Shown piece after piece: positions 2,139-25,319 of a stretch of DNA of 32,000 nt. The notes under the pieces were generated by a model that ran no database searches, was not told the DNA's origin, and worked only from the letters and a program-made list of their open reading frames with translations. Made by a program: the position numbers and the translations under genes. Source of the DNA: an uncultured bacterium (GTDB lineage Bacteria; Auribacterota; JACPWU01); contig CAZXEQ010000007.1 in NCBI GenBank assembly GCA_964640155.1, positions 150,001 through 182,000 on the forward strand, written 5' to 3'. The first letter of the stretch is position 1. The number at the start of each line of letters is the position of its first letter.

Positions 2139-2573
2139 ATGCGTAAATTTCTAAAAACCAAGCATTCCTTTTCACGCTTAAACCAGCGACATCAAGGCTT
2201 TATTCTGTTAGAAGCTATTATCTGTCTTGCAATTCTTCTCATCATTCTTCCAAGCGCTTATACCTTTTTTACTCAAACTCGAAAGAATTGGGTGCTCACT
2301 CAACAACAAGAGCAAGCTATTCTCATTTCCAAAAATGAAATTTTGAAAACAGAAGCAGAGCTCACTCAAGGAATTAAGAATATTGATTTTATTCCTATTT
2401 ATGATTCTAAATTTCAAGTAACTCACTCTATGGAAGATGTCAATCAGCACTTAAAGAAAATAGCTATTGAGGTTAGCTGGAATAGTCCTCAAGGCAGGAA
2501 AAAATATGAAACAAGTCAACTTATGGCACCCCTTCAAGAAAAGAGCATGCCTCTCAATGAAGAAGTTAAATAA
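2139..2573 (+). CDS. Minor pseudopilin, GspI-like
   Basis: The track ORF (2058) is over-extended into gspG. The in-frame ATG at 2139 gives the leader MRKFLKTKHSFSRLNQRHQG|FILLEAIICLAILLII with Glu+5. Small size (144 aa) and the ...IAIEVSWNSPQGRKK... segment resemble GspI. The subtype assignment is tentative. Confidence 0.6.
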   Translation: MRKFLKTKHSFSRLNQRHQGFILLEAIICLAILLIILPSAYTFFTQTRKNWVLTQQQEQAILISKNEILKTEAELTQGIKNIDFIPIYDSKFQVTHSMEDVNQHLKKIAIEVSWNSPQGRKKYETSQLMAPLQEKSMPLNEEVK

Positions 2574-3042
2574 TTTAAAAAAATTATCAGGTTTTACTCT
2601 GCTTGAGCTTTTAATCGCTTTAAGTATCATTTTGCTCCTTTGGGGAAGCATCCTACATATCCATATAAGCATTAGAAAGTCTTTTAAAGAGCTCAAAGCT
2701 CAAAGTCAAAAATCAGAAAAAAGAACACAAATTTTTTCACATTTTGAAAAAGATTTAAATAGGATGATTAAAAATCTTCACGGTGAAAATTCTAGAATTA
2801 CATTTGAAACTTTGGATGGGGAAATTTCCTATAACTTTGAGGGAAAAGAACTTTATCGAAAAGAGAATCAAAAACACGAAAAAATAGATGATAGAAGAAT
2901 AGAAGGTAGTTGGGCGTATTACTCGAAAAAACAATGGCTCAAAACTTGGAATGATCCTAAACCTCCGCAAGCCATACTTATGACCATTCAAATGGATCAG
3001 GACCTATTCAAAATGATTTTTCCTATTCGGAACAGGGAATGA
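2557..3042 (+). CDS. Minor pseudopilin, GspJ-like
   Basis: The track ORF (2467) is over-extended. ATG at 2557 gives the 12-aa leader MKKLNNLKKLSG|FTLLELLIALSIILLL with Glu+5. 161 aa, positioned between the GspI-like and GspK-like genes. The subtype is inferred from order and size only. Confidence 0.55.
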   Translation: MKKLNNLKKLSGFTLLELLIALSIILLLWGSILHIHISIRKSFKELKAQSQKSEKRTQIFSHFEKDLNRMIKNLHGENSRITFETLDGEISYNFEGKELYRKENQKHEKIDDRRIEGSWAYYSKKQWLKTWNDPKPPQAILMTIQMDQDLFKMIFPIRNRE

Positions 3043-10985: not shown

Positions 10986-11681
10986 ATGGGAACTCTCATT
11001 CATTTAGATTTTGTTGGAACACTCATTATTATCATCCTTGCTCTGTTTTCCGTCTATGGTTGGGCTGTTTTCTTAAATAAAATGAAGCTTTTAAGATCTA
11101 TTGATAAAAGTTCAAAAATTTTCTTAGAACGTTTTCGAAAAAGTGAAATGGATCCTTTGGGTTTTTATCGACAGAATTACGCAAAAGTAGAAGATCCTTC
11201 GCCTTTGGTCAAAATTTATAAAGTGGGTTGCCATGAATTAGAAGCCGTTTTAAAAACAAATGAAACGATTGCTCCTGGAGCGCAAAGAAGTGGGCCTGCT
11301 AAAATGTCTATTTTAGAATTAGAGAGCATTCAAAAGATTCTTCAGCGTACGACTTCTGAAGAAATGATGGCTCTTGAGAAATCTTTGGCTGTTCTCGCAA
11401 CAGCTTCTTCGGTAGGGCCTCTCTTAGGCCTTTTAGGCACAGTATGGGGCATTATGGATGCATTTGTGGGGATTGGAAAGAAGGGCACAGCTAGCATCAG
11501 TGCAGTTGCTCCAGGTGTGGCTGTGGCTTTGATTACAACAGTTATTGGTCTTCTAGTTGCAATTCCAGCTCTTATTGCTTATAACTTTTTTCAAAGCCGT
11601 TTCAATACCATCGCTATTAAGACTGATAATTTTGCCTCTGAATTTTTATCTGCAGTTGAGAAGAAACACGTTCTACGCTAG
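10986..11681 (+). CDS. MotA/TolQ/ExbB-family proton channel
   Basis: Three-TM topology and conserved C-terminal region ...LATASSVGPLLGLLGTVWGIMDAF...VAPGVAVALITTVIGLLVAIPALIAYNFF... Confidence 0.85.
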   Translation: MGTLIHLDFVGTLIIIILALFSVYGWAVFLNKMKLLRSIDKSSKIFLERFRKSEMDPLGFYRQNYAKVEDPSPLVKIYKVGCHELEAVLKTNETIAPGAQRSGPAKMSILELESIQKILQRTTSEEMMALEKSLAVLATASSVGPLLGLLGTVWGIMDAFVGIGKKGTASISAVAPGVAVALITTVIGLLVAIPALIAYNFFQSRFNTIAIKTDNFASEFLSAVEKKHVLR

Positions 11682-11699
11682 GATTCAGGATAGCTCCAC

Positions 11700-12110
11700 A
11701 TGATATCTACAAAGCAGCGCTCCAAAAAGATTGTCAGCGATATCAACATGACCAATTTGGTCGATGTCACCATGACTTTGCTGATCGTTTTTATTCTATT
11801 GGCTCCGGTGATTGAAACAGGAATTGATTTAAAATTGCCTCAAGCCTCTTCACAAAAGGTAGATACGCCACAAGAAGTAACAAGTCTTAGCGTTTCAAAA
11901 GAGGGAGTTATTTTCTGGAATTCAGAAATGATTAGTTTAGAAGAACTTCCAAATCGTATTGAAACAGAAAAAGAAAAAAAACCAAATCTAGCAATTTTAT
12001 TGCGAGGTGATACCAGCACTTCTTATGGTCAAATGGTTAAGGTTTTAGATATTCTTCGCAATGAAGGAATTGATCAAATTGACATTGCAACTGAAGCTGA
12101 GACAAAATAA
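11700..12110 (+). CDS. ExbD/TolR-family protein
   Basis: ...INMTNLVDVTMTLLIVFILLAP... N-terminal TM signature, 136 aa, immediately downstream of the TolQ/ExbB homologue. Confidence 0.85.
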   Translation: MISTKQRSKKIVSDINMTNLVDVTMTLLIVFILLAPVIETGIDLKLPQASSQKVDTPQEVTSLSVSKEGVIFWNSEMISLEELPNRIETEKEKKPNLAILLRGDTSTSYGQMVKVLDILRNEGIDQIDIATEAETK

Positions 12111-12125
12111 AATTTTTTTTGAATC

Positions 12126-12161
12126 AATTGTTAACCTTTTTTTTATTGCAGGTTAACAATT
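12126..12161. promoter_or_regulatory. Candidate BirA (biotin repressor) operator
   Basis: Perfect 11-bp inverted repeat AATTGTTAACC (12126-12136) - N14 - GGTTAACAATT (12151-12161), ending 1 nt before the ATG at 12162. Half-sites TTGTTAACC/GGTTAACAA resemble the E. coli bioO half-sites TTGTAAACC/GGTTTACAA with a similar spacer. The downstream operon contains bioF and bioA. Confidence 0.6.
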
Positions 12162-12944
12162 ATGCCCTCTCAAATTGTTTTGATTACAGGAGTGTCAGGG
12201 GGACTGGGCATTGAGTTAGCGTTAGCTTTTGCAAATAGGGGAGACATCGTTTTAGGCGTTTATCATCAAAATCATATTGCTATTACAAAGTTAGAAGAGA
12301 ACATTAAGAGAATAGGAGGTTTTTGTCAGTTTTATCAATGCGACATTCGTCAGGAGAAAGAGGTAAAAAAGCTTTTTCTTGCAATTGCATCGCGTTGGGG
12401 AAAATTGGATGGACTGATCAATAATGCAGGCATTATTCGGGATCAGAATATTTTAAAAATGTCTTACGAAGATTGGGATGAAGTTATCCAAGTTAATTTA
12501 ACAGGTTCTTTTTTTTGTTTGAAAGAAGCTATTTCTTTACTCACTAAAGAACAATTAAAAAAATCAAAATTCATTATCAATATTGTTTCGCTTCGAGGAC
12601 TTACTGGAAATGAGGGACAAACAAATTATTCTGCGTCAAAAGCCGGATTGATTGCTTTAACACAAACTGCTGCATTGGAGTTGAATCCTTTTGGAATTAA
12701 AGTTAATGCAGTTATTCCAGGACTTTTAGAGACGCAAATGAGCAAAGGAAGTAAGGCACTCAAAGACTTTTCAGAGCGTTTGCCATCTGATATTGCTCAA
12801 TGGATTGTAAAAATAGCTTCTCTCCAAGAAACCACAGGTCAATTATTTATTTTAGAAAATCGAGTGACTAAATATGCAAATTTGCCAATATCCTTCTCGA
12901 GTTGTAATTACGGGGATGGGAATTTCAACAGCGATTGGAACTAA
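12162..12944 (+). CDS. Short-chain dehydrogenase/reductase, 3-oxoacyl-ACP reductase (FabG)-like
   Basis: TGVSGGLGIELA (TGxxxGxG), NNAGI, and the catalytic S...YSASKAG (YxxxK). The 3' end overlaps the next gene by 71 nt. Confidence 0.85.
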   Translation: MPSQIVLITGVSGGLGIELALAFANRGDIVLGVYHQNHIAITKLEENIKRIGGFCQFYQCDIRQEKEVKKLFLAIASRWGKLDGLINNAGIIRDQNILKMSYEDWDEVIQVNLTGSFFCLKEAISLLTKEQLKKSKFIINIVSLRGLTGNEGQTNYSASKAGLIALTQTAALELNPFGIKVNAVIPGLLETQMSKGSKALKDFSERLPSDIAQWIVKIASLQETTGQLFILENRVTKYANLPISFSSCNYGDGNFNSDWN

Positions 12945-14037
12945 GATTTCCAAAGCTTGGGAAGCACTTGAAAAAGGAGAATCTGGAATAAAAACGCTTT
13001 CTTTTGATCAGCTCAAAATTCCAGCTGGATATGTCTCAAGTCTATCTTCTGAAAATAAAAAAGCTGAATTGCTTGCGTTGAATGCATCTGAAGAAGCCTT
13101 AAAAGATTCTGGTCTTGAAATAAAGAATATCCCCTCTGAAAGAATTGGAATTTGTGTGAGTTCTAGCAAGGGGGATTTTGAAGATATTCTAAACCCTACA
13201 AATGGATTTTTTTTGGAGAAAATTAATTCTAGACTGGTTCAATATTATCAAACTTCAGGACCTTCTCTTAATCTTGTGGGGGCTTGTTCAACGGGTCTTC
13301 AATCTGTCTCATGGGGAACACGCTGGATACAAGAAAATAAATGTGACATAGTTTTTGCTGGAGCCAGTGACTCGGTTCTTCATCCCTTTTTGATTCATGC
13401 CTATGAACAGGCAGGCATTCTAGCGAAAATTGACTCTAAATCTCCCCAGAAAAATATTAAACCTTTTGATCGAGATAGAACTGGAACCGTTTTGGGCGAG
13501 GGCAGCGGGGTGGTGATTCTGGAGTCTTTAGAATTAGCTCAAAAAAGAGGCGCGAAGATTTATGGAGAAATTTTGTCCTCCTATTACGGAATTGACCCTT
13601 TTCATCCGATTCGTATGAATCCAGATGGATCTAGTGTGGCACAAATCTTTCAACATCTTTTTCAAAAATCTCAATATTCTATGGATAATGTTGACTTGAT
13701 TCATCTTCATGGTACAGGTACAGTTTGGAATGATTTGATAGAAACACGTGGAATTAAAAGTTTTTTTAAAGAGCAGGCAAAAAAAATTTCATTTTGTGCC
13801 ACCAAACCTTTTACAGGACATTTAATTGGGGCCAGTGGCGTTGTAGAACTTATTTTTAGTCTATTAGCTATGAAGCATGGGTTTGTTCCCCCCACACTTA
13901 ATTTGGAAGAAACAGACCCTGAATGCGATCTTGATTATACCCCTGGTTATGGAAAAGAGAAAACCATACGGTCTTTGATTGGCTTGGCATATGGTTTTGG
14001 TGGTCATATCTCAGGAATTCTTGTGAGAAAGATATAA
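12874..14037 (+). CDS. Beta-ketoacyl-ACP synthase I/II-like (FabF/FabB family)
   Basis: RVVITGMGISTAIG N-terminus and a Cys-His-His triad context: GACSTG, HLHGTGT, KPFTGHLIGASG. C-terminal ...GFGGHISGILVRK. Confidence 0.85.
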   Translation: MQICQYPSRVVITGMGISTAIGTKISKAWEALEKGESGIKTLSFDQLKIPAGYVSSLSSENKKAELLALNASEEALKDSGLEIKNIPSERIGICVSSSKGDFEDILNPTNGFFLEKINSRLVQYYQTSGPSLNLVGACSTGLQSVSWGTRWIQENKCDIVFAGASDSVLHPFLIHAYEQAGILAKIDSKSPQKNIKPFDRDRTGTVLGEGSGVVILESLELAQKRGAKIYGEILSSYYGIDPFHPIRMNPDGSSVAQIFQHLFQKSQYSMDNVDLIHLHGTGTVWNDLIETRGIKSFFKEQAKKISFCATKPFTGHLIGASGVVELIFSLLAMKHGFVPPTLNLEETDPECDLDYTPGYGKEKTIRSLIGLAYGFGGHISGILVRKI

Positions 14038-14038
14038 T

Positions 14039-15226
14039 ATGAGACATTTTGATTTTTTAAATCAAGAATTGATGGATATTCACACTAAAAATCGCTTTCG
14101 CGAATTCCAAACGATTACATCAAATTCCGGACCATCTATTACTCTGGGGAATAAAAAACTTATTAATTTTGGATCAAATAATTATTTAGGACTTGCACAA
14201 AACTTCCAAGTGAAATGGTCCTCTATTATAAGCACATGGCAGTTTGGAACAGGTTCGGGAGCTTCTAGGCTTATCTCTGGCAATACAACCGCTCATGACG
14301 CTTTAGAACGCATGATTGCTTCATTTAAAGGGGCTGAATCAGCTCTTGTTTATCCTACAGGTTATATGGCCAATTTAGGGGTAATTTCTGCTTTAATCGA
14401 ACCAGAAGATGTTGTCATTCTAGATCGTCTTAATCATGCTAGCATCGTTGATGCCTGTCTTCTTTCCAAAGCGAAAATATGGGTTTATCCTCATAAAAAT
14501 CTTGAACGTCTCAACGAAGTTCTCGAAAATGCTAAAAAAAGGAATTTTCGTCGAAAATGGGTCATTACAGAAAGTCTTTTTAGTATGGATGGGGATATTG
14601 CTCCATTGCCAGAAATTCTAAAAATTTGTGAAAACCATCAGGCCTTTCTTATGATTGACGAAGCTCATGCTACAGGAGTTCTTGGAGAAAATGGAAGAGG
14701 AGCATTAGAATACTTTGACATTGATCCTAAAAGAGTTTCTATCATCATGGGAACTTTAAGTAAAGCATTGGGATCTTTAGGTGGATTTATTGCGGGGGAA
14801 AAAGAACTTATTGATTACTTGAGAAATCGATCTAAAACTTTTATTTATACAACAGGACTTCCTTCTTCAGTTTGCGCAGGATCTCTTAAATCAATTCAGT
14901 TGATTGTAAAATCAAATCAATTAGTTAAAAAACTTAAAGCAAATATTGATTATTTTTATGAGGGATTAACAAAAGTTGGCATGGATTGCCCAAAAGAAAA
15001 AACACCCATTATCCCTATCATTACAGGAACTGAGTTGGATACGATGAAAGCTTCTCAAAAATTAAAAGAAGAAGGTTTTTTTGTCCCAGGTATCCGTCCG
15101 CCTACGGTTCCAGAGGGAGAAGGGCGATTACGCATCAGTTTAATGGCAACACATACAAGACAACAGATGGACGGAGTATTGGGAACAATAAAATCTATTT
15201 TTAAAAATCATGAAATCACAAAATAA
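14039..15226 (+). CDS. bioF: 8-amino-7-oxononanoate synthase (alpha-oxoamine synthase family)
   Basis: ...GSGASRLISGNTTAHDALE...YPTGYMANLG...DEAHATGVLGENGRG...GTLSKALGSLGGF (PLP lysine). Adjacent to bioA and downstream of a BirA-like operator. Confidence 0.8.
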   Translation: MRHFDFLNQELMDIHTKNRFREFQTITSNSGPSITLGNKKLINFGSNNYLGLAQNFQVKWSSIISTWQFGTGSGASRLISGNTTAHDALERMIASFKGAESALVYPTGYMANLGVISALIEPEDVVILDRLNHASIVDACLLSKAKIWVYPHKNLERLNEVLENAKKRNFRRKWVITESLFSMDGDIAPLPEILKICENHQAFLMIDEAHATGVLGENGRGALEYFDIDPKRVSIIMGTLSKALGSLGGFIAGEKELIDYLRNRSKTFIYTTGLPSSVCAGSLKSIQLIVKSNQLVKKLKANIDYFYEGLTKVGMDCPKEKTPIIPIITGTELDTMKASQKLKEEGFFVPGIRPPTVPEGEGRLRISLMATHTRQQMDGVLGTIKSIFKNHEITK

Positions 15227-16553
15227 AACTAGGACTCTTCAAAAGTTCGATAAACAATATGTTTGGCATCCCTTTACCCAGATGAAAGACTGGGTCAAAG
15301 GCGATCCCTTAATTATTGAAAGTGGAAAGGGGAACACTCTTATTGATAGTGATGGCCATTCGTATTTAGATGGCGTTTCATCTTTATGGACTAATGTTCA
15401 TGGTCATCAAAAAAAAGAAATTGATCAAGCCATTCAAAAACAACTGAAAAAAATTGCACATAGCACACTTCTAGGTCTCTCTAATATTCCTTCTATCAAA
15501 TTAGCAAAAGAGCTTATTCAAATTGCTCCTAAAGGTCTTACAAAAGTTTTCTATTCAGACAACGGCTCCACAGCGGTAGAGGTTGCTCTTAAAATGGCCT
15601 ATCAGTATTGGCAACACATAGGGCCTGGGTCATCGAGAACAAAATTTATCGGTTTTAAGGAAGCCTATCATGGAGATACGATTGGCTCTGTCAGTGTTGG
15701 AGGAGTAGAATTATTTCATCATGCATTTAAACCTCTTCTCTTTGATGTCATTAGATTTGCTTCTCCATATTTTTTTAAGAATCAACCGGAAGTTTTGCTA
15801 GATCAAATAGAAAAAGAAATCATTCGAGAGAAAAATAAAATCATTGGCATAGTGATGGAACCTCTGATTCAAGGTGCTGCCGGCATGTTGACCCATCCCA
15901 AAGGCTTTCTGCGTTCCATAAGAAATTTATGTGATCGATATAATCTGCTCTTGATTGTTGACGAAGTAGCGACAGGTTTTGGAAAAACAGGAAAGATGTT
16001 TGCCTGTGAAAATGAAAATGTTAGTCCAGATCTAATGGCTATTGCAAAAGGTATTTCAGGTGGCTATCTTCCGCTCGCAGCAACTTTGGTAAAAGAAAAA
16101 ATTTATCAGGCCTTTTTAGGAGAGCAGCATCAGTTCAAAACTTTTTTTCATGGACATACTTATACAGGGAATCCTTTGGCTTGCGCAGCAGGACTAGCTT
16201 CATTCAAAATTTTTAAAAAAGAAAATGTCCTTAAAAAATTACAGAAGAAGATTCAGATTTTTAAGGAAGGCTTAAAATTATTCTCAAAACTTCCTCATGT
16301 TGTAGAAATTCGTCAATGTGGTGTCATGATCGGGATAGATCTTGTTAAAAATAAATCTCCTCGCAAAGACTATTTACCTGAGGAAAAAATTGGAATTCGT
16401 GTTTGTCAAGAAGCCAGAAAAAGGGGAGTTATCTTGAGACCTCTTGGAAATGTCATCGTTTTGATGCCTCCACTCTCTATTCAACATAATGAGATAAAAA
16501 AACTGCTCGGAAGCACGTATCATGCCATCCGAGCAGTTACAGAATCATTTTAA
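15210..16553 (+). CDS. bioA: Adenosylmethionine-8-amino-7-oxononanoate aminotransferase
   Basis: Hallmark BioA N-terminus ...DKQYVWHPFTQMKDW...IIESGKGNTLIDSDGHSYLDGVSSLWTNVHGH..., then ...DEVATGFGKTGKMFA...FFHGHTYTGNPLACAA... Confidence 0.9.
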   Translation: MKSQNKTRTLQKFDKQYVWHPFTQMKDWVKGDPLIIESGKGNTLIDSDGHSYLDGVSSLWTNVHGHQKKEIDQAIQKQLKKIAHSTLLGLSNIPSIKLAKELIQIAPKGLTKVFYSDNGSTAVEVALKMAYQYWQHIGPGSSRTKFIGFKEAYHGDTIGSVSVGGVELFHHAFKPLLFDVIRFASPYFFKNQPEVLLDQIEKEIIREKNKIIGIVMEPLIQGAAGMLTHPKGFLRSIRNLCDRYNLLLIVDEVATGFGKTGKMFACENENVSPDLMAIAKGISGGYLPLAATLVKEKIYQAFLGEQHQFKTFFHGHTYTGNPLACAAGLASFKIFKKENVLKKLQKKIQIFKEGLKLFSKLPHVVEIRQCGVMIGIDLVKNKSPRKDYLPEEKIGIRVCQEARKRGVILRPLGNVIVLMPPLSIQHNEIKKLLGSTYHAIRAVTESF

Positions 16554-16569
16554 ACGCGAAACAGAATTC

Positions 16570-17613
16570 TTAATCAAATACGGCTAAACTCACTCCAAAA
16601 GAGCTGTGCCCATCTGAATATCCAAAATCAAATCCGAATCCTGTGTAGGGTCCTGACTCATAAACATAATATCCATCTACATAGGCATAGGAACTTCCAC
16701 ATGTATCAGCCCAAGAAACAAGTTGATCCCAACCCCAAGGTTGATAGGTTGTGTAAGAAGCATATCCATAGGGGTAGTAGTAATAACTGGAATATTCATT
16801 CGCGAGTTTTTCTCTTTCTAACTCGAGTTTTTCCTGTTCCAAAATATACTCATTTTTAGCAGCAATATCTTGATCTGCTGATGCTCTAGCTGCTTTTTGT
16901 TGTTCAATGCTGGGGACTTTAGGGCCTGCAACGCTTTCACCTACAGGACTCCAACCTGGAGGAGGGGCAATTGCAACTTTTGCATTTCCACGAGCCTTAA
17001 GATAGTCTTCTCTTGAGATCTTCATTCCTTGAGATTCTTCCGTCATCCCCAATTTTTCATACAATTGAGCAATAACTTGTGCTCCTTTATCGCTTTGAGT
17101 TTGATCCACGATTGTTTTAGCTACAGACAAAACACCTGCAGCACCATCATGATCTCCTATTTGAATAAGCCCATTAGCTGCTTCTGTCATTCCAATCCAA
17201 TCATTCTGTGATTGAGCAGTTTGTTCGGCTAAATGAAAAGCTTGGTTGCTGCTTTCTTTTTTTCCTTGATCAGGTGGTAAACTTGCAAACGCGTATCCAA
17301 CCGCAATCGCAATTCTCCAATCCTGCTTTTGCTCGGCCATTTGAAAAGCTTGATCAAATAAACCTGATGCCTGAGCTGGTTCGCCAAGTTTTAAAAGAGC
17401 ATTCCCAGCATCCAAACATCCTCTTGGCTCACTTGCTTGAGCAGCAAATTGACCTGCTTCTTGAAAATGTTGAATAGCTTCAGCTTTGTTTTTTGCCTTA
17501 ATGGCTTGAAAACCTTTTGCAAAAGAATCATGCATGGATCGAGTGGGATCTTCCGAAAAACCTCGAGTTGCGATTAAGCTTATCATTAGAATAAAAAGTG
17601 CATATCGTTTCAT
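16570..17613 (-). CDS. Secreted repeat protein (TPR/Sel1-like helical repeats) with an aromatic/Gly-rich C-terminal tail
   Basis: The track start (GTG 17622) lies inside a strong SD (AAGGTG). ATG at 17613, 6 nt downstream of it, gives the signal peptide MKRYALFILMISLIATRGFS|EDP. Repeated A/Q-rich helical units (...AFQMAEQKQDWRIAIAVGYA..., ...AFHLAEQTAQSQNDWIGMTEAANG...). Last ~75 aa: YSSYYYYPYGYASYTTYQPWGWDQ...GYYVYESGPYTGFGFDFGYSDGHSSFGVSLAVFD. Confidence 0.6.
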   Translation of the reverse strand: MKRYALFILMISLIATRGFSEDPTRSMHDSFAKGFQAIKAKNKAEAIQHFQEAGQFAAQASEPRGCLDAGNALLKLGEPAQASGLFDQAFQMAEQKQDWRIAIAVGYAFASLPPDQGKKESSNQAFHLAEQTAQSQNDWIGMTEAANGLIQIGDHDGAAGVLSVAKTIVDQTQSDKGAQVIAQLYEKLGMTEESQGMKISREDYLKARGNAKVAIAPPPGWSPVGESVAGPKVPSIEQQKAARASADQDIAAKNEYILEQEKLELEREKLANEYSSYYYYPYGYASYTTYQPWGWDQLVSWADTCGSSYAYVDGYYVYESGPYTGFGFDFGYSDGHSSFGVSLAVFD

Positions 17614-19545: not shown

Positions 19546-22521
<2,976 letters not shown>

Positions 22522-22547
22522 TAGGCCGAGCGTGACAATCTAGATGG

Positions 22548-23129
22548 TTATTCATAGATCTGAATAATTTTTTTTAAATCAAAAGTATCTCCCCAAATTT
22601 TTTGGCCATAATGTCGGAAAAAATCAATCATATATTTTTTCATCACAAATAATTGTTCCGATCGAGGACTTTTGCTAAGGGCTTTGCGCCAAAGTTGGGC
22701 TAGTTTAATGGGATCAAAAGGATTCTTTTTGAAAACTTCGATCATGTCTTGGCAATCTGATACCAGATAGCGTCCAATCTTTCCAATACTCCAGTACAAT
22801 GGATGAGCGAGATAAACTTTAATTTCATTAAAAGTTTTATAGAGAATAATATTTTTGTCAAAATCAAGGAAACTTAATGAAGACCATCGATCAACATTGT
22901 CACTAAATTGAGCCTGAACTCCTGTTTGATGGACCACTTTAGCAACAGCTTCGGAAAACGCATTGAATGAACACGCCTCTTTAAATTGAAATTGAAAATC
23001 GACATCGAGTGTTGGACGAACTCCTCCAAAAAGAAGTGCAGCAGCTCCTCCAATAAGAATAATTTCTGTCGGATGTTTCCACTCGTTAGAAAGCTTTTCA
23101 AAAAAAACATCAATATCATTCTTTTTCAT
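22548..23129 (-). CDS. Minimal nucleotidyltransferase-fold protein (candidate toxin/effector)
   Basis: ...EIILIGGAAALLFGGVRPTLDVDFQF... fits the pol-beta superfamily signature hG[GS]-x9-13-Dh[DE]h (13 residues between GG and DVD). 193 aa. ATGA overlap with the upstream HTH gene. Confidence 0.5.
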   Translation of the reverse strand: MKKNDIDVFFEKLSNEWKHPTEIILIGGAAALLFGGVRPTLDVDFQFQFKEACSFNAFSEAVAKVVHQTGVQAQFSDNVDRWSSLSFLDFDKNIILYKTFNEIKVYLAHPLYWSIGKIGRYLVSDCQDMIEVFKKNPFDPIKLAQLWRKALSKSPRSEQLFVMKKYMIDFFRHYGQKIWGDTFDLKKIIQIYE

Positions 23130-23608
23130 GAAATGTATTTCCAGAGATGTTTATCAATTCGATCTAATAAATGTGTAATCAATTTTTGAGAGTAAAGCGT
23201 CTTTAATTCACTCCATCTTTTTGCTACGAAGGTTCTTCGATGTGGATAGAAGAGAGGACGTGGTACATTTACCGCACGCAATTTAGTGAGAACAAGTAAT
23301 TCTATTTCATCACACAACTTGTTTTCTTCATCAGAAAGTTCTCTTTTTCCTGTAATTATTTGCAATGCAATTTTATCCAGTTCATGTCGATTTAAGTTTT
23401 CAAGAGGTGAGTGATGAGGCTCTAAATTTACCCAAGAAATTTTTAAAGCCTCACAAATACGATTTAAAGTACGGACCGTAATGTCTCGTTTTTGGTTTTC
23501 AATAGCAGAAATGGCTGATTGGGGGAGTCCACATATTTTTCCAAGCTCGACTTGGCTTAAATGAGATTTCAATCGATTAAGTTTAAGCTCTAATGAGATC
23601 GAATTCAT
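23126..23608 (-). CDS. XRE-family helix-turn-helix protein with a ~95-aa C-terminal extension (candidate antitoxin/regulator)
   Basis: ...LKSHLSQVELGKICGLPQSAISAIENQKRDITVRTLNRICEALKISWVNL... is a typical HTH_3/XRE motif. First gene of a two-gene minus-strand unit. Confidence 0.75.
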   Translation of the reverse strand: MNSISLELKLNRLKSHLSQVELGKICGLPQSAISAIENQKRDITVRTLNRICEALKISWVNLEPHHSPLENLNRHELDKIALQIITGKRELSDEENKLCDEIELLVLTKLRAVNVPRPLFYPHRRTFVAKRWSELKTLYSQKLITHLLDRIDKHLWKYIS

Positions 23609-23614
23609 GATTCT

Positions 23615-23642
23615 ATTATATTAAATATTATATATTTGTCAA
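23615..23642 (-). promoter_or_regulatory. Consensus sigma70 promoter positioned for a leaderless HTH-NTase transcript
   Basis: Minus strand reads TTGACA (complement of 23637-23642) - 16 nt - TATAAT (complement of 23615-23620) - AGAATC - ATG (start at 23608). There is no room for, and no sign of, an SD. Confidence 0.55.
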
Positions 23643-23699
23643 AAAATAAATTAAATAAAAATAATGTTATTTCTGTATTATATTTATATGGAGAAAGTT

Positions 23700-25319
23700 A
23701 TGACTATTTTAATGGTTGGCTTGATTCTTGGAAAATATGATGTATATTACTCAGGACCAATGAAAACCATGCTGGATATTCTTATTTTCTATTTTATTCT
23801 TCAGAGCTCATTCCTTCAGGCAAGTGAGACTGACAAAAGAGAATTTGATTTATCAAAATCTTCCATCACCCAAAAGACTTTTACTGCACACAGTCATCTT
23901 CAAATCCAAAAGAATTACTTACTCCTTTCAAAAATTCCTGTTCCGTCTCTTTTCAATGTATCACTCGTATTGAATGTATTTGCAAATGTGCACGCAGAAG
24001 AGCAAAGAGCTTTAGCAGAAGCTTATGTACATGCATTTCAGGACTGGGTCATCAAAACAGGGCAGGGTCAAAGTACTGAAGCAATTTCAGAAAAAACACT
24101 TCGTTTAATCGATGAGTGGGAAAGCAAAAGAAAGACAGAACAAGGACAATTATCAGAACGTGAACAAAGAATTTTTTCTATGCTTAGAGAAGCAAGTTCT
24201 ATAAAAGTAACGGAGCCCGCCGCGAGGCTTACTGAAAATGATATTCAACTATTATGTTGTCTTGGCCTTTTGCATGTAGATGCTATCTTTTTGTTTATTA
24301 ATGATTTCTATTTTGAATATCAAGATTTGGTTGGAAATTTAGTTAAAACATCTAAAAATAATGAAGAAATTCAAAGATGGAAGAATGCATGGAATACTAA
24401 GTTAGAGGAAAGTCGTCTGCAATGGGTTTTTAATCAAGACTTAGGATTAATGTATAATCCTTCCGTTGCTATAGCTTATGATCCTAAAGAAATTAAAACA
24501 AAAAGAGTTGGTCCCTTTGTCTATTTTGAAATTCCAGATATGCCAAACAGACGTTCTCGTCGTATACATCGAGAAAGTTGCATTCGTTCTGATTTTTTAG
24601 ATGTTTTAGAGGAGGACACAATTATGGATGATTCTATTAATAGTATTCTTGTCGTGACTCGAAGATGGCCTCGAGTAACTTATGATTCTCTTCTAATCAG
24701 CAAAGAATGGAAACCTCAAAAATTAATACGAGACCTTATTCGTTCTCAATTAAAATGGGCTAGTCGAAATGCCATTTTGTGTTTTCATCGGGGGAATCGA
24801 TTTGTTGACCATCAGCATTCTCATCTTTATCCTGTGGGTTCTTTCCCAATAGCAGAGCTTGCTGGAAGTTTTATTTCTTCTACCTGCTTACATGGATTGG
24901 AAATAGGAAGTCTTTCGAATTATCCTGTCCACCATATTGCATTTTCGAGTTCTAACGCTGAAAATTTAGAGGAAGCAACTTTAACTATGTCTGAATTTTT
25001 AGAGGAGAAACAGATAAGATTTCACCAGCTTGTTTTTTATCATCCTCTGATCAAGAAAATAATGGTTTGTTTTGTTTTTTGGAAAGATGTTCGGGATTAT
25101 CCTCTTCCTTTTACCTTTGAAACTCCAGGAGCTATTACAGTTGAAGTTCCTACCGATCTTTCAGAAGAAACCATTCGTCATCATTTAAAAGCTATTTCTG
25201 TCCCTCAAGAAACAGTCGATCGTATTCGAGATGAATTTTTGGAAAGAAGATGGAGGAGAGTTATCCCAGGCAGACAGGATGTTCCTCTTTCCTTTGAATT
25301 TTTTGAAGAAGCTGCTTAA
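23700..25319 (+). CDS. Hypothetical protein, 539 aa, with a hydrophobic N-terminus (orphan)
   Basis: ATG at 23700 is preceded by GGAGA (23690-23694) at 5-nt spacing; track start 23664 is probably over-extended. An internal ATG at 23760 would give a signal-peptide-like MKTMLDILIFYFILQSSFLQA|SE. I recognised no conserved domain. Confidence 0.6.
   Translation: MTILMVGLILGKYDVYYSGPMKTMLDILIFYFILQSSFLQASETDKREFDLSKSSITQKTFTAHSHLQIQKNYLLLSKIPVPSLFNVSLVLNVFANVHAEEQRALAEAYVHAFQDWVIKTGQGQSTEAISEKTLRLIDEWESKRKTEQGQLSEREQRIFSMLREASSIKVTEPAARLTENDIQLLCCLGLLHVDAIFLFINDFYFEYQDLVGNLVKTSKNNEEIQRWKNAWNTKLEESRLQWVFNQDLGLMYNPSVAIAYDPKEIKTKRVGPFVYFEIPDMPNRRSRRIHRESCIRSDFLDVLEEDTIMDDSINSILVVTRRWPRVTYDSLLISKEWKPQKLIRDLIRSQLKWASRNAILCFHRGNRFVDHQHSHLYPVGSFPIAELAGSFISSTCLHGLEIGSLSNYPVHHIAFSSSNAENLEEATLTMSEFLEEKQIRFHQLVFYHPLIKKIMVCFVFWKDVRDYPLPFTFETPGAITVEVPTDLSEETIRHHLKAISVPQETVDRIRDEFLERRWRRVIPGRQDVPLSFEFFEEAA

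Follow-up and report, generated by a model that had tools for sequence, protein, structure and literature searches.

A FabF-derived ketosynthase in a putatively BirA-repressed biotin operon: a candidate enzyme for the pimelate arm of biotin

The stretch of DNA analysed here, referred to as the window, is 32,000 nucleotides long and carries four plus-strand open reading frames at positions 12162-16553. The first (12162..12944, 260 aa, adh_short/KR domains) encodes an SDR that resembles 3-oxoacyl-ACP reductase and is annotated as a ketoreductase. The second (12874..14037, 387 aa, ketoacyl-synt N and C domains) encodes a KAS I/II-type ketosynthase, assigned to a FabF-derived clade with a lysine in the acyl pocket. 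These are followed by bioF (8-amino-7-oxononanoate synthase, 14039..15226, 395 aa, TIGR00858) and bioA (adenosylmethionine-8-amino-7-oxononanoate transaminase, 15210..16553, 447 aa, TIGR00508). The KAS gene overlaps the SDR gene by 71 nt, the gap between KAS and bioF is 1 nt and bioF overlaps bioA by 17 nt, in agreement with the four tightly packed or overlapping genes described in the initial annotation. An alternative KAS start at 12916, which corresponds to the public gene call P0001 of 373 aa, would reduce the first overlap to 29 nt. We prefer the start at 12874 because it retains the N-terminal RVVITG motif, as in the homologues P0003 and P0005. A frameshift or fusion behind the SDR/KAS overlap was ruled out, as both reading frames are intact and occur as separate genes in the orthologous locus L002. 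The operon is taken to end with bioA because a convergent gene terminates at 16570.

A BirA-type operator, TTGTTAACC-N14-GGTTAACAA, is located at 12128..12159 within an extended palindrome (12126-12161) and ends 2 nt upstream of the SDR start codon. Compared with the published consensus TTGTAAACC-N14/15-GGTTTACAA (PMC545781), 8 of 9 positions are matched in each half-site. No other such site occurs in the 32 kb, where 0.01 would be expected by chance, and the BirA-type operator proposed earlier directly ahead of the operon was thereby confirmed. A similar site was found at the same position in L002 (8829-8858), and another directly upstream of the KAS gene in locus L087 (7971-8000). Searching for the palindrome in operons of the L003, L008, L013 and L088 types gave no site, and control by BirA, as predicted from these sites, is supported for the window, L002 and L087 only. 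Just upstream of the operator, a consensus scan gave promoter-like hexamers on the plus strand (TTGACA-18-CAAAAT and TTGCAA-17-TAAAAT, 12079..12113). The number of sites from the promoter and terminator scan was not above chance in this region, and the hexamers are only suggestive of a candidate promoter.

Family models assign the last two genes with confidence. bioF scores 449.6 bits on TIGR00858 (equivalog cut-off 426.45) and bioA 543.4 bits on TIGR00508 (cut-off 405), both above the threshold. The SDR reaches 181 bits on the FabG model TIGR01830 and the KAS 285.1 bits on the fabF model TIGR03150, both far below the respective equivalog cut-offs of 297.75 and 493.75. These low scores speak against the simplest explanation of the locus, namely that the SDR and KAS genes are ordinary housekeeping fabG and fabF lying ahead of bioF and bioA by chance. 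Such an assignment would be in line with FabG and FabF being the best family matches, and with an AlphaFold2 model of the KAS (pLDDT 94.4) that adopts the FabF fold with a TM score of 0.94 to the P. aeruginosa and E. coli enzymes. Residues of the acyl pocket and the genomic context, described below, bear on the same question.

The KAS belongs to a clade of 79 sequences that is distinct from canonical FabF. All motifs previously quoted for it were found, that is GACSTG with Cys138, HLHGTGT with His279 and TGHLIGASG with His316. The codon of the catalytic Cys138 lies at 13285..13287 (plus strand) and corresponds to E. coli FabF Cys163. The catalytic and gatekeeper set comprises Cys138, His279, His316, Lys311 and Phe375, with Cys-His-His-Lys intact. 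Throughout the clade, Cys163, His303, His340, Lys335, Asp311, Thr305/307 and Phe400 (FabF numbering) are invariant. An inactive KAS resembling a chain-length factor was considered and ruled out, as the Cys is retained.

In FabF, the back gate of the acyl pocket consists of Ile108 and Phe202, whose alteration shifts chain-length specificity (bioRxiv 10.1101/2021.02.13.431092; PMC4606726). In our alignment, position 108 is Lys in 79 of 79 clade members and in 0 of 121 canonical sequences, which carry I/L/V/M at 108, Phe at 202 (121/121) and Ala/Gly/Ser at 198. The residues of the window KAS at positions 108, 202 and 198 are Lys99, Tyr177 and Leu173. The Lys99 codon (13168..13170, plus strand) lies in the motif SSSKG, and the placement of this residue in the pocket rests on the alignment to FabF Ile108. 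Among the 74 non-basal clade members, Lys108 and Gly107Ser are found in 74/74, Gly105Ser in 72/74, Phe202Tyr in 71/74, Gly198Leu/Met in 68/74 and Ala193Ser in 66/74. A search from the basal member P0101 returned 116 more FabF-like proteins, of which 115 are canonical without Lys108 and one carries the Lys (P0271); with P0271 counted apart, canonical FabFs without Lys108 amount to about 235 in total. The neighbours of P0101 are canonical FabFs, with no Desulfobacterota among them. Basal Lys-bearing members that retain Phe202 (P0101/P0073, P0022, P0009) have no visible linkage to biotin genes, and for this reason Lys108 alone is no proof of a role in biotin synthesis. The combination of SSSKG and Tyr202, as judged from the aligned residues, is a simple signature that separates the clade enzymes from housekeeping FabF. 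By the same residues the KAS is a predicted FabF descendant in which the condensation machinery was kept and the acyl pocket was rebuilt. Replacement of the hydrophobic back gate required for long chains by Lys and Tyr argues further against a housekeeping FabF.

The genomic context of the clade points in the same direction. The KAS gene lies inside or adjoining biotin genes in each of the 10 independent non-basal lineages whose context was retrievable, whereas bioF was nearby in 0 of 78 canonical fabF loci among the matches listed in a genome scan. The constant proximity of this KAS clade to bioF or bioA, raised as a check in the initial annotation, was borne out in these lineages. The 78 loci served as a negative control; the scan used the clade alignment, its peptide patterns are common to all FabFs, and the matches listed were mostly canonical FabFs of at most 36% identity, with L008 and L013 as the clade members among them and none from Desulfovibrio. 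Five layouts were observed: SDR-KAS-bioF-bioA, bioB-SDR-KAS-bioF-bioA-bioD, bioB-SDR-KAS-bioF-bioD-bioA, bioB-KAS-bioF-x-bioA-bioD and KAS-bioU-like-bioF-bioD. Biotin operons with the KAS but without the SDR are those of L087 and L088. The hosts are Chlamydiota-labelled, Omnitrophota-like and Elusimicrobia MAGs, and none of the complete clade operons contains bioC, bioH, bioW, bioI or bioZ. A metagenome scan with P0011 gave 8 loci, each closely related and with an identical operon layout, tblastn of plasmids gave canonical fabF only, and the best 150 matches of a profile search in a library of 1.84 billion representatives were giant multi-KS polyketide synthases. Among the matches listed, acpP adjoins fabF in 52 canonical loci; the SDR/KAS pair has no acpP, fabD or fabH neighbours. 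Moreover, with a BirA operator ahead of them, housekeeping genes would be silenced by abundant biotin, and essential lipid synthesis with them. Given these differences and a biotin linkage conserved across phyla, we consider a housekeeping fabG/fabF pair highly improbable.

The absence of the known pimeloyl-source genes and of bioB and bioD, reported in the initial annotation for the window, was confirmed by scans. No window product gave a Pfam or NCBIfam match indicating BioC, BioH, BioW, BioI, BioZ or BioE-like genes; this result combines direct scans, which did not extend to the ORF at 2467-3042, with existing Pfam tables for genes that are identical or syntenic at L001 and L002, and with inspection by eye of the two end-cut ORFs. 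The window also lacks bioB, bioD, birA and an ACP gene, and no dehydratase or enoyl reductase accompanies the SDR/KAS pair. A tblastn search detected no AcpP homologue in the window and none at the clade loci L001-L005, L008 and L013, and PP-binding domains are absent from the existing Pfam tables for L002, L003, L087, L088, L091, L094 and L103. Altogether, neither a dedicated ACP nor a FabZ-like dehydratase was found at the window locus or at 17 related loci. The earlier view of the pair as a biotin-regulated, dedicated elongation module holds as far as the biotin linkage and the operator are concerned, but not as a self-contained module, since dehydratase, enoyl reductase and ACP are missing.

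Outside the window, the source genome may encode a canonical BioC/BioH, BioW, BioZ or BioE route.

With bioC and bioH potentially elsewhere in the genome, the pair could elongate the malonyl-ACP methyl ester made by BioC, or it could make another acyl chain, used by a BioF-like enzyme of a pathway other than biotin synthesis. BioF-family enzymes do serve other pathways too, and the models for Kbl and serine palmitoyltransferase also give scores for the window bioF. However, a neutral methyl ester gives no reason for an invariant pocket Lys, and complete operons (bioB, bioF, bioA or bioU-like, and bioD together with the KAS) lack a methyltransferase or esterase. Furthermore, bioF and bioA score above equivalog cut-offs that are specific to biotin synthesis, and the operator belongs to the BirA type. 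An accessory function of this kind therefore appears quite unlikely.

Similar to the KAS, the SDR differs from its housekeeping relatives at distinct positions. The catalytic residues of FabG, Ser138, Tyr151 and Lys155, are kept in 12/12 biotin-operon SDRs. All 12 have an Arg at FabG Gly240, which is seen in 0 of 48 housekeeping FabGs, and in 10/12 the FabG Arg15 is changed to Gly or Ser. The match of the window SDR to TIGR01830 spans profile positions 1-187 of 239, leaving the C-terminal HVNGG region unmatched. From these residues the biotin-operon SDR is classified as a type separate from FabG, with an altered C-terminus. Since two related biotin operons have no SDR, the KAS is regarded as the conserved core.

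It seems probable from these features that the KAS and SDR build the pimelate arm of biotin. More specifically, we propose, with a probability of about 0.6, that the operon is BirA-repressed and that its FabF-derived KAS acts on short omega-carboxy-acyl-ACPs, delivering pimeloyl-ACP to BioF without methyl esters. The gene content, operator, clade signature and conserved biotin linkage are observations; which substrates are used, how many rounds are run and whether housekeeping ACP, FabZ and FabI take part are matters of inference. The first two genes would supply the pimeloyl thioester for BioF. The KAS pocket would be short, with a cationic, hydrogen-bonding end wall that might hold the free omega-carboxylate of a C3-C5 acyl group, and BioZ is known to anchor the omega-carboxylate of glutaryl by polar side chains (PMC12625853). 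Malonyl- and/or glutaryl-ACP would serve as primer and be condensed with malonyl-ACP, giving 3-oxoglutaryl-ACP and then 3-oxopimeloyl-ACP without the methyl-ester disguise of BioC/BioH. The 3-oxo-omega-carboxyacyl-ACP would be reduced by the co-translated SDR, and each round would be completed by housekeeping FabZ and FabI on housekeeping ACP. BioF would then join pimeloyl-ACP with alanine, and BioA would aminate the product. E. coli FabG, FabA and FabI can complete 3-oxopimeloyl-ACP (PMC7645780), which may explain why some operons need the KAS only.

The same KAS-only operons (L087, L088) would also fit a single BioZ-like step, in which glutaryl-ACP or glutaryl-CoA is condensed with malonyl-ACP to 3-oxopimeloyl-ACP and the C5 primer comes from lysine- or glutarate-type catabolism instead of malonyl-ACP. 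BioZ itself is a precedent, with housekeeping FabG, FabA and FabI finishing the product (PMC7645780), and a C5 chain would fit a pocket closed by the Lys/Tyr back gate. On the other hand, KAS I/II primers are normally acyl-ACP and not CoA (PMC12625853), and no CaiB-like transferase, glutaryl-CoA-forming gene or acyl-ACP synthetase adjoins any examined operon. The frequent dedicated SDR also suggests an intermediate that is a poor substrate of housekeeping FabG, for example 3-oxoglutaryl-ACP. We regard the single step as rather unlikely. A more far-reaching reading can be put forward tentatively: one FabF-derived KAS with Lys108 and Tyr202, using malonyl-ACP as carboxyl-retaining primer, might suffice to divert FAS II to pimeloyl-ACP. 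If true, this would represent an unrecognised, widespread and methyl-ester-free origin of pimelate in uncultured phyla (Chlamydiota-related, Omnitrophota and Elusimicrobia), and the Desulfovibrio pathway would have this KAS as its minimal core.

The origin of pimelate is the variable part of biotin synthesis, and the FAS-like Desulfovibrio cluster has posed a biochemical question since 2004. The window locus is a stripped-down, one- or two-gene version, which makes the route directly testable. Proteins of the clade are now labelled as generic beta-ketoacyl-ACP synthases, an annotation that can be corrected. Because of this generic labelling, biotin prototrophy is probably under-predicted in MAGs of several uncultured phyla.

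Compared with known systems, the clade KAS has the fold and catalytic residues of FabF, and the SDR keeps the Ser-Tyr-Lys residues of FabG. Both differ from these enzymes in their low identity (~30-35%), in scores below the family cut-offs and in gene positions outside the fab cluster. In addition, the stretch around positions 113-137 is shortened in the subclade of the window KAS, and in the SDR the FabG residues Gly240 and Arg15 are changed, the former to Arg. BioZ, the KAS III-type enzyme of alpha-proteobacteria, is likewise a dedicated condensing enzyme in biotin operons. It takes a primer with a free omega-carboxylate and passes 3-oxopimeloyl-ACP to FAS II, as is proposed here from pocket residues and gene linkage. 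However, BioZ is a FabH homologue with Cys-His-Asn and a CoA primer, whereas the KAS described here is a FabF homologue with Cys-His-His-Lys. The clade KAS would be a second condensing enzyme, independent of BioZ, that was adapted to omega-carboxy acyl chains. The closest parallel in gene content is the Desulfovibrio cluster DVU2558-DVU2565, which includes the FabF-like DVU2563, the FabG-like DVU2561, the ACP DVU2562 and two FabZ-like proteins (Rodionov 2004, PMC545781; Trotter 2023, PMC10102598). The initial annotation had correctly pointed to FAS-like genes in Desulfovibrio biotin operons (PMC545781), but was out of date as to their status: genetic evidence has since shown that biotin synthesis needs the cluster, including its KAS and FabG-like gene (Trotter et al. 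2023, PMC10102598). Both systems combine a KAS I/II-type enzyme with a FabG-like reductase in a BirA-controlled biotin operon without bioC/bioH, and both are proposed to reach pimeloyl-ACP by elongation without methyl esters. The Desulfovibrio cluster has a dedicated ACP and FabZ-like proteins, whereas the window and the 17 related loci lack both and some also lack the SDR. Its hosts are Desulfobacterota and Chrysiogenetes, in contrast to the Chlamydiota-labelled, Omnitrophota-like and Elusimicrobia MAGs found here. Likened by gene content, the window operon would best be read as a minimal relative of the Desulfovibrio FAS-like cluster.

Four plus-strand genes are packed together at 12162–16553, as described in the initial annotation. 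They encode a FabG-like reductase (SDR, 12162–12944, 260 aa), a FabF-like ketosynthase of the KAS I/II type (KAS, 12874–14037, 387 aa), BioF (14039–15226) and BioA (15210–16553). The end of SDR overlaps the start of KAS by 71 nt, bioF follows KAS after a 1-nt gap, and the end of bioF overlaps bioA by 17 nt. Because a convergent gene ends at 16570, the operon consists of these four genes. Public gene calls place the KAS start at 12916 (P0001, 373 aa), whereby the RVVITG N-terminus is lost; we preferred the start at 12874 because it keeps this motif, which is conserved at the N-terminus of P0003 and P0005. The SDR reading frame continues for 22 codons after its conserved C-terminal motif, into the start of KAS (12874–12944). 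The BirA-type operator proposed ahead of the operon was also recovered. A palindrome, TTGTTAACC-N14-GGTTAACAA, is located at 12128–12159, ends 2 nt upstream of the SDR start codon and agrees with the BirA consensus TTGTAAACC-N14/15-GGTTTACAA (PMC545781). It is the sole such site in the window, where 0.01 would be expected by chance. The bioF and bioA products pass their NCBIfam equivalog cut-offs (449.6 bits against 426 and 543.4 bits against 405, respectively), and SDR and KAS reach only about 60% of the score demanded by the NCBIfam FabG and FabF models (181 bits against 298 and 285 bits against 494).

In the rest of the window, no lookalike of BioC, BioH, BioW, BioI, BioZ, BioE, BioB, BioD, BirA or an ACP was observed, in agreement with the earlier statement that the window lacks the known pimelate-route genes, bioB and bioD. 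The flanks code for type II secretion pseudopilins, glycosyltransferases, ExbB/ExbD, DoxX, polyprenyl synthase, LigA, an integrase and aromatic amino-acid enzymes, at a window GC content of about 36%. A XerC/D-type tyrosine recombinase, a divergent HTH protein and two ORFs without family match (193 and 551 aa) at 21616–25319 may form a small mobile or regulatory island. Locus L002, from a "Chlamydiae bacterium" MAG (GCA_016178055.1), is syntenic with the window over about 20 kb, and the proteins of the four operon genes are 46–70% identical between the two. The best named relatives of the window LigA are from Chlamydiae/Chlamydiota MAGs (60–67% identity), followed by Omnitrophica (55%). The source belongs to an uncultured lineage that carries the NCBI label Chlamydiota.

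The relationship of KAS to other ketosynthases was assessed in a neighbour-joining tree of 199 sequences, comprising the best 120 database matches and the KAS genes of 80 genome loci and carrying no support values. A clade of 79 members including the window KAS splits from the canonical FabFs. Exactly the same split is given by one alignment column, the position of Ile108 in E. coli FabF, which is Lys in 79/79 clade members (Lys99 in the window) and in 0/121 canonical sequences, where I, L, V or M is found. The surrounding motif is S-S-S-K-G in the clade versus G-S-G-I-G in FabF. Among 116 more FabF-like sequences, from a search seeded by a basal clade member, P0271 alone has the Lys. Further pocket positions are changed in the 74 members outside the basal group (E. 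coli FabF numbering): Phe202 to Tyr in 71, Gly107 to Ser in all 74, Gly105 to Ser in 72, Ala193 to Ser in 66 and Gly198 to Leu or Met in 68, while most carry Val, Ile or Leu for Thr270 and Phe or Met for Pro272. The clade shows no variation at Cys163, His303, His340, Lys335, Asp311, Thr305/307 or the GFGG gate with Phe400; the window counterparts of these residues include Cys138, His279, His316, Lys311 and Phe375, so that the Cys-His-His triad is intact, as had been read from the sequence. The AlphaFold2 model of the window KAS (pLDDT 94.4, pTM 0.95) matches FabF structures with a TM of 0.94 at about 30% identity, and its nearest PDB entries include the B. subtilis FabF I108F mutant. No solved structure was found within the clade, and neither NCBIfam nor Pfam holds a dedicated model for it.

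Non-basal clade membership coincides with a position among biotin genes. In 10/10 independent non-basal lineages with genomic context, KAS sits among bio genes. The order is SDR-KAS-bioF-bioA in the window and L002, bioB-SDR-KAS-bioF-bioA-bioD in L003/L095 (P0011) and their relatives L096–L098 (70–81% identity), bioB-SDR-KAS-bioF-bioD-bioA in the Elusimicrobia MAG locus L008, and SDR-KAS-bioF-GGDEF-bioA-bioD in L013. L087 (P0015) carries KAS-bioU-like-bioF-bioD, L088 (P0017) bioB-KAS-bioF-x-bioA-bioD and L103 (P0046) bioB-SDR-KAS-bioU-like-GIY-YIG-bioF. L091 (P0013) reads SDR-KAS-bioF up to the contig end, and L094 (P0063) bioB-SDR-KAS-PilZ with one more cut ORF before the contig end. Among the matches listed, 0/78 canonical fabF loci have bioF in their flanks, and acpP adjoins fabF in 52/78. 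The contrast of 10/10 with 0/78 corresponds to a naive hypergeometric probability of about 2e-13, which ignores phylogenetic dependence. The window KAS is not a housekeeping FabF, and the explanation that SDR and KAS are simply housekeeping genes is poorly supported. BirA-type palindromes are also present in L002, at the orthologous position, and in L087, immediately 5′ of KAS; operons of the L003, L008, L013 and L088 types yielded no such site.

Some bio operons show further features. The bioA of L008 is broken into two ORFs (12949–13653 and 13661–14374), which is probably a frameshift introduced by long-read assembly rather than a true pseudogene. In L087 (9189–10172) and L103 (3612–4601), BioA is replaced by a BioU-like protein (388 bits on NF047886, under the cut-off of 600); KAS therefore accompanies both known ways of making DAPA. 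Directly 5′ of bioB, Omnitrophota-like operons carry a conserved sulfur-gene block (L003 2089–9262, L088 302–5800, L094 1–5203, L013 6118–8903) with a ThiS-like protein (PF02597) and one or two PALP (CysM/CysK-like) genes; most also have a small NIL-domain protein (PF09383), which is not called in L088. L003, L088 and L094 add sulfate activation, namely ATP sulfurylase and, where the locus extends that far, APS kinase and PAPS reductase; L094 also has a JAB protease. This block could couple protein-thiocarboxylate sulfur supply to biotin synthase.

Five basal Lys-bearing sequences (P0101, P0073, P0022, P0009 and P0045) retain Phe202 and are nearer to canonical FabF. The four with context, all but P0045, show no visible bio linkage (KAS at L086 10001–11197 on a 4.5-Mb contig, L092, L093 and L104 344–1537). 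P0101 and P0073 are stand-alone genes after prmC, P0022 has no bio neighbour, and the SDR-KAS pair of P0009 is followed by ExbB/ExbD without downstream bio genes. They may be intermediates in evolution, or else biotin genes located apart from the others. ExbB/ExbD genes lie beside SDR-KAS upstream in the window (10986–12110), in L002 and downstream in the unrelated basal L104 (2842–3902), a shared neighbourhood that is probably coincidental.

SDR is located directly upstream of KAS in 8/10 lineages, often with a 4-nt overlap, and is missing from the L087 and L088 operons; KAS is therefore the conserved core and SDR a frequent partner. We compared 12 SDRs (window, L002, L003, L008, L013, L091, L094, L096–L098, L103, L104) with 48 housekeeping FabGs. 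SDR retains Ser138, Tyr151 and Lys155. At the position of FabG Gly240, Arg is found in 12/12 SDRs versus 0/48 FabGs, within a C-terminal motif F-x-x-(E/D)-x-R where housekeeping FabG has H-V-N-G-G. FabG Arg15, which we take to bind the NADPH 2′-phosphate, is Gly or Ser in 10/12 SDRs. Together, these replacements may indicate carboxylate binding and an altered cofactor preference.

Ile108 and Phe202 form the "back gate" of the FabF acyl pocket, and gate changes shift chain-length specificity (bioRxiv 10.1101/2021.02.13.431092; PMC4606726). By alignment to FabF, Lys99 is predicted to lie in this pocket, and a Lys/Tyr back gate, three gained Ser and a bulky residue for Gly198 would fit a short acyl group ending in a carboxylate. 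In BioZ, the glutaryl omega-carboxylate is held by two Ser side chains (PMC12625853). KAS would elongate malonyl- and/or glutaryl-ACP with malonyl-ACP, without methyl esters; that SDR and KAS are instead helpers of a methyl-ester route is poorly supported. SDR would act as reductase on the 3-oxo-omega-carboxy intermediates, perhaps on the C5 one that FabG handles poorly, and housekeeping FabZ, FabI and ACP would finish the cycle. E. coli FabG, FabA and FabI convert the BioZ product 3-oxopimeloyl-ACP to pimeloyl-ACP (PMC7645780), a precedent that would explain how KAS alone can be enough in an operon. The chief alternative is a BioZ-like role, in which KAS performs one condensation only, on a C5 primer supplied from outside. 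The initial proposal of a biotin-regulated SDR-KAS pair for pimelate elongation is supported by the bio linkage, with two qualifications: SDR is missing from two operons, and neither a dedicated ACP gene nor one for a FabZ/MaoC-type dehydratase occurs in the clade's bio-linked loci examined. The observation is confirmed and its interpretation supported.

KAS is not a BioZ because catalytic triad and fold differ; it probably works like one. For the FAS-like genes that the initial annotation mentioned in Desulfovibrio bio operons, Rodionov et al. 2004 (PMC545781) listed homologues of ACP, KAS, KR and dehydratase. Transposon fitness showed that DVU2558–2565 and the nitroreductase-like DVU1220 are required without biotin; similar clusters were reported only from Desulfobacterota and Chrysiogenetes, and the authors state that the biochemistry is undefined, as had been supposed (Trotter et al. 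2023, PMC10102598). A full-text literature search found no description of either the Lys signature or bio-operon genes of the FabF type outside these phyla. The window system can be seen as a reduced variant of the Desulfovibrio-type biotin cluster, from which it differs in having KAS with or without SDR and in occurring in different phyla.
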